Part shown: in pieces, positions 1,508-36,315 of the stretch
Numbering within the stretch: position 1 is the stretch's first letter
Layout of the letters: every line of letters starts with the position of its first letter
The notes under the pieces: generated by a model
Seen by the model: the letters and a program-made list of their open reading frames with translations, nothing else
What the model was told of the DNA's origin: nothing
Database searches by the model: none
NCBI RefSeq assembly: GCF_041886205.1
Contig: NZ_CP169029.1
Length of the DNA stretch: 64,000 nt
Source: Escherichia coli
GTDB taxonomy: Bacteria; Pseudomonadota; Gammaproteobacteria; Enterobacterales; Enterobacteriaceae
Direction: 5' to 3' (one strand)
Program-made: the position numbers and the translations under genes

Positions 1508-1603
1508 TCAACGGATAACGTAGCATTTACTGGTAGCGTCATTATAATGACGCCTGTTCATGCCTGCGCTTGTTGGCTACGTCCGTTGTAATCAGGAAAT
1601 TTC

Positions 1604-2302
1604 ATGGAAAATCAACCTAAGTTGAATAGCAGTAAAGAAGTAATCGCGTTTCTGGCCGAACGTTTTCCCCACTGTTTCAGTGCGGAAGGTGAAGCGCGTC
1701 CGCTGAAAATCGGTATTTTTCAGGATTTGGTCGATCGTGTTGCCGGGGAAATGAACCTGAGCAAAACGCAATTACGATCCGCTTTACGTCTCTACACTTC
1801 GAGCTGGCGTTATCTTTACGGTGTTAAACCCGGCGCAACGCGTGTCGATCTTGACGGCAACCCATGCGGTGAGCTGGACGAGCAACATGTAGAGCATGCT
1901 CGCAAGCAGCTTGAAGAAGCGAAAGCGCGTGTTCAGGCACAGCGTGCTGAACAGCAAGCGAAAAAACGCGAAGCTGCCGCAGCTGCTGGTGAGAAAGAAG
2001 ACGCACCGCGCCGCGAACGCAAGCCACGTCCGACCACGCCACGCCGCAAAGAAGGCGCTGAACGTAAACCTCGTGCGCAAAAGCCGGTAGAGAAAGCGCC
2101 AAAAACAGTAAAAGCACCTCGCGAAGAACAGCACACCCCGGTTTCTGACATTTCAGCTCTGACTGTCGGACAAGCCCTGAAGGTGAAAGCGGGTCAAAAC
2201 GCGATGGATGCCACCGTATTAGAAATCACCAAAGACGGCGTCCGCGTCCAGCTGAATTCGGGTATGTCTTTGATTGTGCGCGCAGAACACCTGGTGTTCT
2301 GA
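1604..2302 (+). CDS. proQ: RNA chaperone ProQ
   Basis: ORF track 232 aa, [25 protein letters not shown]..., Lys/Arg-rich linker, immediately upstream of prc. Confidence 0.9.
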
Positions 2303-8925: not shown

Positions 8926-9544
8926 TCCTGATTATACGCACTGCCATGGTGCAACTGCTTCAAATTAAAACTCTGGTCTGACTTCAAATAATTATCATAT
9001 TATTTATTTGCGTAACGGGATATCAGAAAAAGATATTTTCCTCATTAATTTATTAGGATGTTTACATCGGATTTGTGATTAAGCGTGGTATTATTTATTA
9101 GCGAAACGTTTCTCTCTTGATTTTTTGCTCATTCATCAATTTTTCTTATTTTAAATTTTCAATCCCTTTGGGGATTGACTTCTCTTTAGGGTAATTGATA
9201 GCCGTTAACTGACTGTTTTATGAGAAAAAGTGATATAACTTTTTATTCATTGCATAGCAAAAAATGTGATATTGCACGCACTATGTAATAACTTCTCCCA
9301 CTGGCCTGGAACAACTGAACTTATTGAACTATGTTAGAAACTACGCCAGTTTAAGTATCTGCCTGAACTGGCAAGGTTAAGCACAATGATATATCGGCGC
9401 GTATTCCGTTGCATAAGTGTGCAAAAAAAGTGGAAGACGTATCGAGATTTGTGCGTCTGATCGAGACATGTTTAAAAATGGCTTGCCATAATTAACGTTG
9501 TATGTGATAACAGATTTCGGGTTAAACGAGGTACAGTTCTGTTT

Positions 9545-9688
9545 ATGTGTGGCATTTTCAGTAAAGAAGTCCTGAGTAAACACGTTGACGTTGAATACCG
9601 CTTCTCTGCCGAGCCTTATATTGGTGCCTCATGCAGTAATGTGTCAGTTTTATCTATGTTATGCCTGCGGGCGAAGAAAACAATCTAA
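9545..9688 (+). CDS. yobF: small protein YobF (47 aa), co-transcribed with cspC
   Basis: Hand-translated [47 protein letters not shown]; immediately upstream of cspC; coordinates approximate. Confidence 0.7.
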
Positions 9689-9700
9689 GGAATTTTTCAA

Positions 9701-9910
9701 ATGGCAAAGATTAAAGGTCAGGTTAAGTGGTTCAATGAGTCTAAAGGTTTTGGCTTCATTACTCCGGCTGATGGCAGCAAAGACGTGTTCGTACACTTCT
9801 CCGCTATCCAGGGTAATGGCTTCAAAACTCTGGCTGAAGGTCAGAACGTTGAGTTCGAAATTCAGGACGGCCAGAAAGGTCCGGCAGCTGTTAACGTAAC
9901 AGCTATCTGA
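9701..9910 (+). CDS. cspC: cold-shock-like protein CspC
   Basis: ORF track 69 aa; CSD with RNP motifs KGFGFI and VFVHF. Confidence 0.95.
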
Positions 9911-9955
9911 TCGAATCCACTGATCTGAAGTGTGAATACGCTTCAATCTCGCTAT

Positions 9956-9982
9956 AAAGCCTCGTCGAATGCGAGGCTTTTT
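9956..9982 (+). terminator. intrinsic terminator after cspC
   Basis: aagcctcg-tcgaatg-cgaggcttttt hairpin plus T-run. Confidence 0.55.
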
Positions 9983-10075
9983 ACTATGCTTTATCTTCGC
10001 TCCTGGCGTTCGGATATTTGCCCGCCGCGTGATTCGCGTTACACTTGCGGCCTTTAGTATCCTGCCGGAGTTGTC

Positions 10076-10885
10076 ATGTCTTTTTCCTGTCCACTTTGCC
10101 ATCAGCCTCTTTCGCGTGAAAAAAACAGCTATATCTGTCCCCAGCGACATCAGTTTGATATGGCGAAAGAAGGGTATGTCAATCTGCTGCCCGTTCAGCA
10201 TAAACGGTCTCGTGATCCGGGCGACAGCGCGGAAATGATGCAAGCACGCCGCGCATTCTTAGATGCCGGACATTATCAGCCGCTGCGTGATGCAATTGTC
10301 GCCCAACTGAGGGAACGGCTTGATGATAAGGCCACGGCGGTGCTAGATATTGGCTGTGGTGAAGGGTATTACACACACGCATTTGCCGATGCGTTGCCCG
10401 AAATCACCACGTTTGGTCTGGATGTTTCGAAGGTAGCGATAAAAGCGGCGGCGAAACGCTATCCGCAGGTCACTTTTTGTGTCGCTTCCAGCCACCGTTT
10501 GCCGTTTTCCGATACCAGTATGGACGCCATAATACGTATTTACGCGCCGTGTAAAGCAGAAGAATTAGCACGAGTAGTGAAGCCCGGCGGCTGGGTCATT
10601 ACTGCCACGCCGGGACCGCGACATTTGATGGAGCTGAAGGGGCTGATTTACAATGAAGTACATCTTCATGCACCTCATGCAGAACAACTGGAAGGTTTTA
10701 CATTACAGCAGAGTGCGGAGTTGTGTTATCCGATGCGTCTTCGCGGTGATGAAGCCGTCGCATTATTGCAGATGACGCCGTTTGCCTGGCGTGCGAAGCC
10801 AGAAGTCTGGCAAACACTGGCAGCAAAAGAAGTGTTCGACTGCCAGACGGACTTTAATATTCACCTCTGGCAGCGTTCTTATTAA
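10076..10885 (+). CDS. rlmA: 23S rRNA m1G745 methyltransferase RlmA
   Basis: ORF track 269 aa; N-terminal Cys4 zinc-finger (CPLC...CPQRH) and SAM-binding motif LDIGCGEG. Confidence 0.9.
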
Positions 10886-11448
10886 CCGTGGAAGTGCGTC
10901 CAGAGGATCTGGACGCCGATGCCGATCAGTACCAGCCCGCCGAGAATTTCCGCTTTTTTCCCAATAATTGAGCCGATAAAGCGACCAACCATCATCCCTA
11001 ATGTTGACATAATCAAGGTTGCACAACCAATGGCCAATGCGGTCGCGATAATGTTGACCTGCAGGAAAGCAAGACCAACACCCACAGCCATGGCATCCAG
11101 GCTGGTGGCAATCGCGGTGGTTACCAGTAGCCAGAAACCGTGTCGACGGCGCGGCTCTTCATCTTCATCATCTGCGCCACGAAAACCCTCAATAATCATT
11201 CGCCCGCCGAGGAATATCAGCAGCACAAACGCAATCCAGTGGTTCCATTCAAGGACAAACCGGCTGGCTAACATGCCCATTCCCCAGCCGATCAGCGGCG
11301 TCAGGGTTTCGACGGCACCAAAAATAAGGCCGGTTCGCAATGCTTCAGAAAATTTCGGTTTATGGAGGGTGGCACCTTTACCGATTGATGCAGCAAATGC
11401 ATCCATCGACATACCAAACGCAAGAAGAACAGTAGCAGTGATATTCAT
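10882..11448 (-). CDS. mntP: manganese efflux pump MntP
   Basis: ORF track 10882..11502; start moved to ATG giving 188 aa ([21 protein letters not shown]...); hydrophobic, duplicated DUF204-like halves. Confidence 0.85.
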
Positions 11449-11454
11449 GACAAT

Positions 11455-11685
11455 GTCCTGACCGGGGTATCCATAAAACACATCATCGCCCCCAGCAAAC
11501 ATGCATACATGAACAACAAGCCGCGATGGTTTTCGCGTTCATGCAGGCATAGCGATTGATGTGCATATGGTCTCGCCTGACTGAAAGTATTCAGTCCGTA
11601 CGTGCCACGTTTTGCAACGAGTATGTTGACACGTACATTTCCGGAATCTGGAAATCGGCTACTCCCCAAATGAGGGCGCAACCTT
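11455..11685 (-). promoter_or_regulatory. yybP-ykoY-type Mn(II) riboswitch in the mntP 5' leader
   Basis: Minus-strand leader contains GGGGAGUAGCCGAUUUCC near its 5' end, matching the conserved yybP-ykoY core; long structured leader before mntP ATG; boundaries approximate. Confidence 0.55.
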
Positions 11686-11810
11686 AACATATTTTGAGAA
11701 TATAAAACAACTGTTGGAATATATTATTTCATTGCTTTATTGATAACGATTTTCATTTGGATTTATATATCAATGAAACGTTAAAATAAATAACAAATAA
11801 GGGAAGAGGT

Positions 11811-11870
11811 AATATAGCCTAAGCTATGTCTGATTATTAAAAATACACTAAACATAGCTTTGGCTAAATT
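11811..11870. promoter_or_regulatory. two MntR-box-like palindromic half-site pairs upstream of the mntP promoter
   Basis: aaTATAGCctaaGCTATGTct and AAACATAGCtttgGCTAaat resemble the MntR operator remembered as AAACATAGC-N4-GCTATGTTT; not verified. Confidence 0.3.
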
Positions 11871-11876
11871 CATAAC

Positions 11877-12335
11877 TTATTGAGTTGAAACGAGAAGCTT
11901 ATAAATTTTTTCCAGATCGTCGATATTTCGAACGCGGATTAACAGCCGACGCTGTTCTAATTGCATCACCAACACGCCATCTTCCGACAAGTTCATCGCT
12001 TTGATTCGGCTATATTCAATCCAGACATTGGCGAAGAAAAAACCTTTTTGTTTAAAGATGATCTTCGGAACGCGGATCCAGAATATATAAAAACCCATCA
12101 GAGCCAGTGCGCTTAATAACCATGTCGTTATTAACGCACCATGATTCGTGACGTTGTTATAGATAAGAATGACAATCAATCCGACGAAGATAACGCTATC
12201 GATGCGACCACGCCGGAGCAAAGGAATTGCCAGCAGGGTGGGGCCGTTACGGCGGGGCATGATGAACTGATCGTAGATCGCGAAGGCCAGGAGTGCGGCG
12301 ATGAAAAGAATCAGTATCAGGTCCGTGATTGTCAT
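11877..12335 (-). CDS. yobD: DUF986 inner-membrane protein YobD
   Basis: ORF track 152 aa, hydrophobic; conserved position downstream of manZ. Confidence 0.8.
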
Positions 12336-34584: not shown

Positions 34585-36270
34585 TTGAAGAAGGTTTGGC
34601 TTAACCGTTATCCCGCGGACGTTCCGACGGAGATCAACCCTGACCGTTATCAATCTCTGGTAGATATGTTTGAGCAGTCGGTCGCGCGCTACGCCGATCA
34701 GCCTGCGTTTGTGAATATGGGGGAGGTGATGACCTTCCGCAAGCTGGAAGAACGCAGTCGCGCGTTTGCCGCTTATTTGCAACAAGGGTTGGGGCTGAAG
34801 AAAGGCGATCGCGTTGCGTTGATGATGCCTAATTTATTGCAATATCCGGTGGCGCTGTTTGGCATTTTGCGTGCCGGGATGATCGTCGTAAACGTTAACC
34901 CGTTGTATACCCCGCGTGAGCTTGAGCATCAGCTTAACGATAGCGGCGCATCGGCGATTGTTATCGTGTCTAACTTTGCTCACACACTGGAAAAAGTGGT
35001 TGATAAAACCGCCGTTCAGCACGTAATTCTGACCCGTATGGGCGATCAGCTATCTACGGCAAAAGGCACGGTAGTCAATTTCGTAGTTAAATACATCAAG
35101 CGTCTGGTGCCGAAATACCATCTGCCAGATGCCATTTCATTTCGTAGCGCCCTGCATAACGGCTACCGGATGCAGTACGTCAAACCCGAACTGGTGCCGG
35201 AAGATTTAGCTTTCCTGCAATACACCGGCGGCACCACTGGTGTGGCGAAAGGCGCGATGCTGACTCACCGCAATATGCTGGCGAACCTGGAACAGGTTAA
35301 CGCGACTTATGGTCCGCTGTTGCATCCGGGCAAAGAGCTGGTGGTGACGGCGCTGCCGCTGTATCACATTTTTGCCCTGACCATTAACTGCCTGCTGTTT
35401 ATCGAACTGGGTGGGCAGAACCTGCTTATCACTAACCCGCGCGATATTCCAGGGTTGGTAAAAGAGTTAGCGAAATATCCGTTTACCGCTATCACTGGCG
35501 TTAACACCTTGTTCAATGCGTTGCTGAACAATAAAGAGTTCCAGCAGCTGGATTTCTCCAGTCTGCATCTTTCCGCAGGCGGTGGGATGCCAGTGCAGCA
35601 AGTGGTGGCAGAGCGTTGGGTGAAACTGACAGGACAGTATCTGCTGGAAGGTTATGGCCTGACCGAGTGTGCGCCGCTGGTTAGCGTTAACCCGTATGAT
35701 ATTGATTATCATAGTGGTAGCATCGGTTTGCCGGTGCCGTCGACGGAAGCCAAACTGGTGGATGACGACGATAATGAAGTACCACCGGGTCAACCGGGTG
35801 AGCTTTGTGTCAAAGGACCGCAGGTGATGCTGGGTTACTGGCAGCGTCCGGATGCTACCGATGAGATCATCAAAAATGGCTGGTTACACACCGGCGACAT
35901 CGCGGTGATGGATGAAGAAGGGTTCCTGCGCATTGTCGATCGTAAAAAAGACATGATTCTGGTTTCCGGTTTTAACGTCTATCCCAACGAGATTGAAGAT
36001 GTCGTCATGCAGCATCCTGGCGTACAGGAAGTCGCGGCTGTTGGCGTACCTTCCGGCTCCAGTGGTGAAGCGGTAAAAATCTTTGTAGTGAAAAAAGATC
36101 CATCGCTTACCGAAGAGTCACTGGTGACTTTTTGCCGCCGTCAGCTCACGGGCTACAAAGTACCGAAGCTGGTGGAGTTTCGTGATGAGTTACCGAAATC
36201 TAACGTCGGAAAAATTTTGCGACGAGAATTACGTGACGAAGCGCGCGGCAAAGTGGACAATAAAGCCTGA
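34585..36270 (+). CDS. fadD: long-chain fatty acid-CoA ligase FadD
   Basis: ORF track 34519..36270; conserved N-terminus (M)[13 protein letters not shown] begins at an in-frame TTG preceded by GAGGTGA SD; AMP-binding motif [12 protein letters not shown]. Confidence 0.9.
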
Positions 36271-36288
36271 GCGTTAAGTCAGTCGTCA

Positions 36289-36315
36289 GACGCCGGTTAA
36301 TCCGGCGTTTTTTTT
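36289..36315 (+). terminator. fadD terminator / hairpin preceding the rnd start
   Basis: gccggttaatccggc hairpin followed by tttttttt, about 25 nt upstream of rnd start codon. Confidence 0.5.

Follow-up and report, generated by a model that had tools for sequence, protein, structure and literature searches.

Manganese control of mntP in Escherichia coli: a yybP-ykoY riboswitch in the leader and a pair of putative MntR operators upstream of the promoter

The closest described system to the element analyzed here is the mntP (yebN) leader of Escherichia coli K-12 (RF00080, PDB 4Y1M). Our element spans the intergenic stretch between yobD and mntP, including the mntP leader, in a window of 64,000 nucleotides of an E. 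coli chromosome (RefSeq assembly GCF_041886205.1, contig NZ_CP169029.1); all coordinates refer to this window unless stated otherwise. PDB 4Y1M is the crystal structure of the E. coli mntP aptamer, and reporter fusions have demonstrated control at the level of translation (PMC12153347). Mn binding by isothermal titration calorimetry, reporter assays and translational control have also been described for this riboswitch (PMC9603457). The window shares with the K-12 leader the locus, the L1 and L3 motifs, the four-way junction, the 225-nucleotide numbering and the downstream gene, and no substantial difference was found. Positions 11300–12000 (701 bases) are 99.9–100% identical to the yobD-mntP region of K-12, and the same stretch is present at an identity of at least 95% in 5418 of 5426 complete E. 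coli genomes.

A second riboswitch of the same family and organism, that of alx (ygjT), responds to Mn2+ and alkaline pH, acts translationally and also controls a manganese exporter (PMC12153347). In alx the junction is three-way, L3 diverges, the platform contains an intrinsic terminator stem and alkaline pH elicits a response (PMC12153347), whereas the mntP aptamer is a four-way junction. At the DNA level, the MntR operators of mntH and mntS share the 9-4-9 palindrome of the mntP boxes, A(A/T)A(C/T)ATAGC-N4-GCTAT(G/A)T(T/A)T, which at mntS, too, occurs twice. These operators adjoin the gene start and MntR represses there, whereas the mntP boxes lie far upstream and MntR activates, reportedly by countering H-NS (PMC8632737). 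In Bacillus subtilis, as at mntP, Mn-MntR activates the efflux genes mneP and mneS through several upstream boxes (PMC8632737). Judged from the text of that review, the B. subtilis system differs in operator sequence and organism, and mneP has no riboswitch (PMC8632737).

The region is almost certainly the native control region of mntP, sensing manganese twice, once at the DNA and once at the RNA level. The original prediction had proposed a yybP-ykoY riboswitch in the mntP leader and two MntR-box-like palindromes further upstream, which together would give transcriptional and translational Mn control. Both halves of this dual control are supported here, and the literature agrees. The observation is confirmed and its interpretation supported, and there is very little doubt that the element is the already known mntP control region. 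The Fur site and Rho-dependent termination, absent from the prediction, are further published layers of control. The evidence obtained here consists of the sequence elements, with their statistics and conservation, and of covariation in the aptamer and the alternative helix. The RNA elements that define the aptamer are as follows.

11449–11673, minus strand: mntP 5′ untranslated leader, 225 nucleotides, +1 at 11673 according to the published nucleotide numbering
11564–11672, minus strand: yybP-ykoY Mn2+ aptamer, nucleotides 2–110, a four-way junction of P1.1, P1.2, P2, P3 and P4, from RF00080, the minimum free energy (MFE) fold and covariation
11659–11667, minus strand: 5′ strand of L1, GGGGAGUAG, which includes A11 (11663); exact, unique in the window and fitting the RF00080 consensus
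11621–11630, minus strand: metal-binding loop P3.1/L3, GUCAACAUAC, with A48 at 11626; fitting the RF00080 consensus
11569–11577, minus strand: 3′ strand of P1.2/L1, GGCGAGACC, kept as GG[CU]NAGAC[CU] in 119 homologues

The yybP-ykoY core named in the original prediction, GGGGAGTAGCCGATTTCC, is present on the minus strand from 11667 to 11650, and GGGGAGTAGCC occurs only once in the window, at 11657–11667 (minus strand). The L3 motif (G)UCAACAUAC lies within 11621–11630 and the 3′ strand of L1 at 11569–11577, both on the minus strand. In the MFE structure of the 121-nucleotide aptamer region, P1.2 (GCC/GGC) closes three hairpins, namely P2, P3 with the UCAACAUAC internal loop, and P4, and the z-score of the fold against shuffled sequences is −2.96. 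Homologues were collected with the pattern GGGGAGTAGCC-N15-40-GTCAACATAC on contigs of one genome per species, which gave 120 loci, mostly from Proteobacteria; 118 of these were aligned with the window sequence (119 sequences). An MntP homologue lies directly downstream in 33 of 122 pattern-matched loci. Since the L1 and L3 motifs were fixed by the search pattern, their invariance in the 119 homologues is no independent evidence. RNAalifold recovers P1.1, P1.2, P2 and P3 from this alignment; of the 26 pairs, 17 carry compensatory changes. When the explicit structure was scored with P1.1 extended to 8 pairs, 86.8% of the cells were standard-paired, compared with 31–46% when the partners were slid. 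Cells changed on both sides numbered 700, against 134–262 in the slid controls, and 22 of 31 pairs were doubly changed. None of 500 shuffles reached the observed covariation. P4 is seen in the single-sequence fold, and its length is too variable for scoring in the alignment.

The exact L1 and L3 motifs, the covarying four-way junction, an RF00080 match with E = 8.9e-10 and the published structure all agree that the leader is the experimentally characterized yybP-ykoY Mn2+ riboswitch of E. coli mntP; its response to Mn2+ is taken from the literature (PMC12153347, PMC9603457, PMC11647493). A locus of Paraburkholderia sediminicola (L066) contains two Mn riboswitches, at 1576–1697 (minus strand) and 1815–1924 (plus strand) of that locus, back to back within about 250 bp. 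The two are divergently oriented, and an MntP homologue follows one of them.

Downstream of the aptamer, the expression platform and the start of the gene comprise the following features.

11558–11570, minus strand: CCAUAUGCACAUC, the 3′ strand of P1.1 (switch helix, 11564–11570) with a 3′ extension, assigned by pairing
11471–11484, minus strand: anti-P1.1 strand GAUGUGUUUUAUGG, nucleotides 190–203, the best duplex with the P1.1 3′ strand (−14.2 kcal/mol)
11462–11495, minus strand: stem CUGGGG (11490–11495)/CCCCGG (11462–11467), enclosing the anti-P1.1 strand, its end 2 nucleotides short of the Shine-Dalgarno sequence
11456–11459, minus strand: Shine-Dalgarno sequence AGGA, 7 nucleotides before the ATG; (A/U)GGA or GAGG in relatives
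10882–11448, minus strand: mntP coding sequence, Mn2+ exporter of 188 amino acids, from the open reading frame and the RefSeq E. coli annotation; ATG at 11448–11446

The sequence CCAUAUGCACAUC has two partners: CAUUUGG (11666–11672) in the aptamer, and nucleotides 190–203 in the unconstrained MFE structure of the full leader, where nucleotides 104–112 pair with nucleotides 194–203. The anti-P1.1 strand lies where published work places the "riboswitching point", a transcript length of about 205 nucleotides at which P1.1 is invaded if Mn is absent (PMC12153347). The strand is found 35–39 nucleotides before the AUG in 18 Enterobacterales, in leaders that range from 174 to 229 nucleotides in length, and the helix of the OFF state shows compensatory differences, such as CCAUAGACACACU with GGUGUGUCGUAUGG. 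The stem that encloses the anti-P1.1 strand also varies in a paired manner, as GGUUGG/CCAACC in Providencia and GUUGGA/UCCAAC in Arsenophonus; it crosses the OFF-state helix like a pseudoknot, without sharing bases with it. In an alignment of 16 Enterobacterales sequences the anti-P1.1 helix is 91.7% and the stem 85.2% paired, compared with 37–50% for slid partners, and each of the two has three doubly changed pairs. This covariation gives moderate support to both platform helices, with sequences that are few and related and a structure derived from one of them. The CUGGGG/CCCCGG stem presumably has a role in the platform.

A short open reading frame at 11445–11486 (minus strand), whose TGA overlaps the mntP ATG (ATGA), was considered as a conserved leader peptide and rejected because the frame is not conserved. 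In Enterobacter and Lelliottia its AUGs lie 36 nucleotides from the mntP AUG and in frame with it; in E. coli and Citrobacter they are out of frame. These AUGs look conserved as part of the UAUGG of the anti-P1.1 strand, that is, for RNA pairing and not for coding. A longer mntP reading frame of 206 amino acids, starting at 11502, was set aside because the RefSeq start differs. The leaders of Escherichia, Citrobacter werkmanii and Citrobacter sp. FP75 contain about 30–50 more nucleotides than those of Enterobacter (225 versus 174–195 nucleotides), at 11501–11549 (minus strand) in the window. The extra nucleotides form a long hairpin, the tip of which (11522–11537, CGCGAAAACCAUCGCG followed by GCUUGUUGUU) was flagged as terminator-like (one such match found, 0.4 expected).

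The second level of manganese sensing would be provided by two palindromes in the intergenic region, next to the gene upstream.

11810–11831, no strand: proximal putative MntR box TAATATAGCCTAAGCTATGTCT, centre at about −147.5; 23.1 bits, the best site in the window
11850–11871, no strand: distal putative MntR box AAACATAGCTTTGGCTAAATTC, centre at about −187.5, 6 bp past the yobD stop codon; 19.4 bits, the second-best site in the window
11877–12335, minus strand: yobD, the neighbour upstream of mntP

These are the palindromes that the original prediction had picked out, aaTATAGCctaaGCTATGTct at 11810–11831 (plus strand) and AAACATAGCtttgGCTAaat at 11850–11869. Their centres are 40 bp apart, and the boxes lie about 137–198 bp upstream of +1. 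The consensus AACATAGC-N4-GCTATGTT, allowing up to three mismatches, has two matches in the window (11811–11830 and 11851–11870, two mismatches each), where 0.25 matches are expected; one of 100 shuffles gave two. As a test independent of this consensus, a 9-4-9 palindromic matrix was built from six half-sites of K-12 mntH (AAACATAGCAAAGGCTATGTTT) and mntS (two adjacent boxes), with mntP excluded. The mntH and mntS promoter boxes are taken here as the MntR operators reported by Patzer and Hantke 2001 and Waters 2011.

Among about 64,000 positions, the matrix ranks the two mntP boxes first and second, at 23.1 and 19.4 bits, and the third-best site reaches 14.1 bits. The training sites themselves score 17.9–23.9 bits, and the maximum over 200 random 64-kb windows generated with a first-order Markov model is 19.1 bits. 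The matrix scan that had been suggested as a check of the boxes thus places both above the random-window maximum.

The matrix was also run over the 400 bp upstream of each riboswitch in the loci of the pattern search. Besides the window, these include 16 loci from Enterobacteriaceae: an Escherichia clade strain, Escherichia albertii, three Citrobacter, Pseudocitrobacter, Pseudescherichia, Pluralibacter, Lelliottia, six Enterobacter and one metagenome-assembled genome (MAG). The pair is kept in 15 of them, at −160 to −165 and −203 to −207 from GGGGAG, with scores of 15.5–24 bits except for the distal box of E. albertii. Both boxes reach at least 15.5 bits in 14 of the 16, the distal box scoring 15.5–23.5 bits in those 14. 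The distal box of E. albertii scores 9.3 bits, after an insertion of 1 bp in the spacer, and Enterobacter sp. Bisph1 has the proximal box only. All 17 aligned Enterobacteriaceae have the same ATAGC-N4-GCTAT in the proximal box, against a background of drifting spacers and inter-box sequence. No comparable boxes were found by the same scan in about 100 non-enteric riboswitch loci, in Providencia or in Arsenophonus, and Mixta has weak candidates only. The rank of the two palindromes in the window and the retention of the pair support the proposal that they are MntR operators. That Mn-MntR activates mntP at its promoter is given in secondary statements (PMC11647493, PMC8632737, PMC9603457).

Between the boxes and the leader, two further features were located.

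11681–11710, minus strand: predicted core promoter, with −35 TTGTTT (11705–11710), an 18-nucleotide spacer, TGn (11688–11689) and −10 TAAGGT (11681–11686), placed by its geometry relative to +1
11741–11755, minus strand: Fur-box-like 7-1-7 site TGAAAATCGTTATCA, centre at about −75, with two mismatches to TGATAATNATTATCA

The numbering of a 2025 probing study puts the L1 adenosine at A11, the first L3 nucleotide at A48 and the end of the aptamer near nucleotide 110 (PMC12153347). With A11 at 11663, A48 at 11626 and the end of P1.1 at 11564 (nucleotide 110), this numbering fits only if +1 is 11673; in the consensus, A48 (11626) is the unpaired base that directly follows the U-C-A pairs of P3.1. 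The transcription start would accordingly lie at about 11673, as judged from published numbering and not from start-site data. The elements at 11681–11710 would then form a weak extended −10 promoter. The promoter block TTGTTTTATATTCTCAAAATATGTTAAGGTTGCG is almost invariant in 17 Enterobacteriaceae. A generic sigma-70 scan did not report the TGn-TAAGGT promoter and gave only background-level matches in the region.

The Fur-like site lies between the MntR boxes and the promoter. It agrees with 12 of the 14 specified positions of TGATAATNATTATCA, for which 0.2 matches are expected per window, and it is contained in AAATGAAAATCGTTATCAAT (11739–11758, minus strand), the best-conserved upstream block of the 17 Enterobacteriaceae. 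The pattern alone is weak, since a Fur 7-1-7 match at least as good, with one mismatch, also occurs at 35697–35711 (plus strand); being within the coding sequence of a fadD(-like) gene, that match is taken as probably due to chance. Fur binding to the mntP promoter is reported in a review (PMC8632737). The palindrome TTAACGTT at 11777–11784, about 108 bp upstream of +1, hardly varies across Enterobacteriaceae; it is flanked by the proximal MntR box on one side and the Fur-like site on the other.

The G+C content is 19–24% across 11700–11850, compared with 46–57% in the flanks, and so low a G+C content is the composition preferred by H-NS. The boxes lie upstream of the core promoter, which fits the published anti-H-NS mechanism and not classical activation. 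H-NS represses mntP, and this silencing is lifted when Mn-MntR and Mn-mismetallated Fur occupy the promoter (review PMC8632737, citing Dambach 2015). From this literature and the arrangement of the sites, boxes so far upstream would suit anti-silencing better than direct contact with the polymerase.

Several observations weigh against reading the region in this way. The RF00080 model, aligned to 11579–11675 (minus strand), gives 41.6 bits where the gathering score is 45, and the RefSeq records NC_000913.3 and NZ_CP032667.1 have no riboswitch feature at the mntP leader. When P1.1 was enforced in the thermodynamic model, the Shine-Dalgarno sequence did not open (probability of being unpaired 0.06 versus 0.22), so that the ON state was not reproduced; probing in vitro gave no clear Mn-dependent change at the ribosome-binding site either (PMC12153347). 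We infer the exact masking and unmasking of the Shine-Dalgarno sequence. The mntS boxes in the matrix had been picked for their resemblance to the mntH box. The palindromes are probably MntR operators, with contact at these exact bases argued from sequence logic and secondary literature; a text search of the literature for the box sequence found only a primer. Finally, a plasmid-borne PmntP-egfp biosensor in published work did not respond to Mn.

The RF00080 score can be accounted for. The original prediction had proposed an RF00080 scan as a check and the lack of a hit above threshold as grounds for rejection. The match is significant (E = 8.9e-10 in a local E-value scan), although its score falls short of the gathering value, and a gathering-threshold Rfam scan of the whole window listed no RF00080 match. 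The Rfam 15 model of RF00080 has 177 positions. The E. coli leader fits positions 1–95 well, about 75 terminal model positions are deleted in the alignment, and the alignment ends before the E. coli 3′ strand AGGCGAGACCAUAUG. Across 20 related loci, leaders of the Burkholderia group score 77–106 bits and enterobacterial mntP leaders 35–52 bits; Citrobacter (52.4) and Pseudocitrobacter (48.8) pass, whereas the Enterobacter MAG (40.1) and E. albertii (35.5) stay below the threshold. The model suits another architecture, that of Burkholderia-type leaders (about 105 bits). The structure of the E. coli mntP RNA has been solved by experiment as a member of the family; the sub-threshold score is read as a limitation of the model and, being an artefact, should not refute the riboswitch call. 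The RefSeq records carry no riboswitch feature here because E. coli falls just under the gathering score.

Taken together with the literature, from which Mn2+ binding, the action of MntR, Fur and H-NS, translational control and the part of Rho are drawn, the elements suggest the following course of events. Dimers of MntR loaded with Mn2+ would bind the two 9-4-9 palindromes upstream, and their occupancy, with that of Mn-mismetallated Fur, would relieve silencing by H-NS and allow more initiation from the weak extended −10 promoter. The first 110 nucleotides of the leader fold as the aptamer, in which Mn2+ held between L1 and L3 would lock the P1.1 switch helix. Without Mn2+, the conserved strand about 36 nucleotides before the start codon would capture CCAUAUGCACAUC and leave the leader translationally inactive; with Mn2+, this complementary strand would stay free, the ribosome-binding region would be usable and mntP would be translated. 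Translation would in turn shield the transcript from Rho-dependent termination, which would otherwise stop most transcripts in the leader and the early coding sequence.

The output of the leader could instead be mainly transcriptional, with Mn2+ hiding rut sites or blocking Rho and translational control being secondary. Bicyclomycin raises mntP mRNA 20–30 fold; in vitro, Rho stops transcription in the leader and early open reading frame, and a purified system lacking ribosomes shows partial relief of this termination by Mn (PMC11647493). The lack of a clear Mn-dependent accessibility of the Shine-Dalgarno sequence in modelling and in published probing (PMC12153347) points the same way. However, translational fusions respond to Mn and two groups call the riboswitch translational (PMC12153347, PMC9603457), the antitermination by Mn has been attributed in a review to restored coupling of transcription and translation (PMC12360218), and about two-thirds of the transcripts are still terminated when Mn is present (PMC11647493). 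The two outputs are not mutually exclusive, and we regard a mainly transcriptional output as rather unlikely.

A structural alternative concerns the palindromes, which could be the arms of one inverted repeat (19-nucleotide arms, 22-nucleotide loop) forming a hairpin or terminator of the yobD RNA and not operators. The arms, at 11811–11829 and 11852–11870, are indeed 89% complementary, the repeat begins 6 nucleotides after the yobD stop codon, and Rfam microRNA (miRNA)-hairpin models match it weakly on both strands. Complementarity between the boxes is nevertheless automatic, since both are palindromes built from one and the same half-site. What is fixed across genera is ATAGC-N4-GCTAT within each box, whereas the flanks and spacers drift and the box spacing ranges from 40 to 45 bp. 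The stem of the repeat is A+T-rich and no U-run follows it, a terminator scan found nothing there, and the scores of the boxes are similar to those of the operators at mntH and mntS. The matches to miRNA families at 11795–11882 were rejected as artefacts of the palindromic boxes, and a yobD hairpin in place of two MntR operators is very improbable. That the matches are chance resemblances without a regulatory role, as might be suspected in a region of 19–24% G+C where A+T-rich palindromes are common and a generic promoter scan stays at background, is effectively refuted by MntR-box scores above all 200 composition-matched random windows, by elements conserved at fixed positions across genera whose surroundings have diverged, by the strong RNA covariation and by extensive published experiments.

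Two further suggestions, which may be unpublished, arise from the comparison and are put forward jointly and tentatively, as more doubtful than not. The MntR pair, with the Fur-like site, may be a younger layer, restricted to Enterobacteriaceae, upon a much older riboswitch-mntP unit; clear boxes are absent from the three further Enterobacterales sampled (Providencia, Arsenophonus and Mixta) and from every non-enteric mntP riboswitch locus. The conserved and covarying CUGGGG/CCCCGG stem, which has the anti-P1.1 strand as its loop and a 3′ arm that abuts the Shine-Dalgarno sequence, crosses the OFF-state helix with no bases in common, and this could explain why masking of the ribosome-binding site is hard to see in probing experiments.

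Elsewhere in the window, two other RNA families were matched. The cspA thermoregulator (RF01766) scores 132.9 bits at 9525–9985 (plus strand), in what the K-12 annotation gives as the yobF-cspC region; the match runs through the coding sequence of a cold-shock protein, the gene of which is called cspE in one RefSeq record. The small RNA sroD (RF00370) has a full-length match of 115.2 bits at 36229–36314 (plus strand).

For annotation, the mntP leader is a documented false negative of Rfam 15 for a crystallized riboswitch. Scans based on the threshold will miss the mntP riboswitch in E. coli, E. albertii and some Enterobacter, and a rule of "no hit above threshold" would wrongly reject a correct call. 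The analysis also yields, as by-products, a phylogenetic footprint of the MntR pair and the Fur-like site across Enterobacteriaceae and a conserved stem in the expression platform. For the organism, mntP encodes the main Mn exporter of E. coli, and the way in which MntR and a riboswitch control it, with Fur, H-NS and Rho acting as well, is a textbook example of metal homeostasis in several layers.

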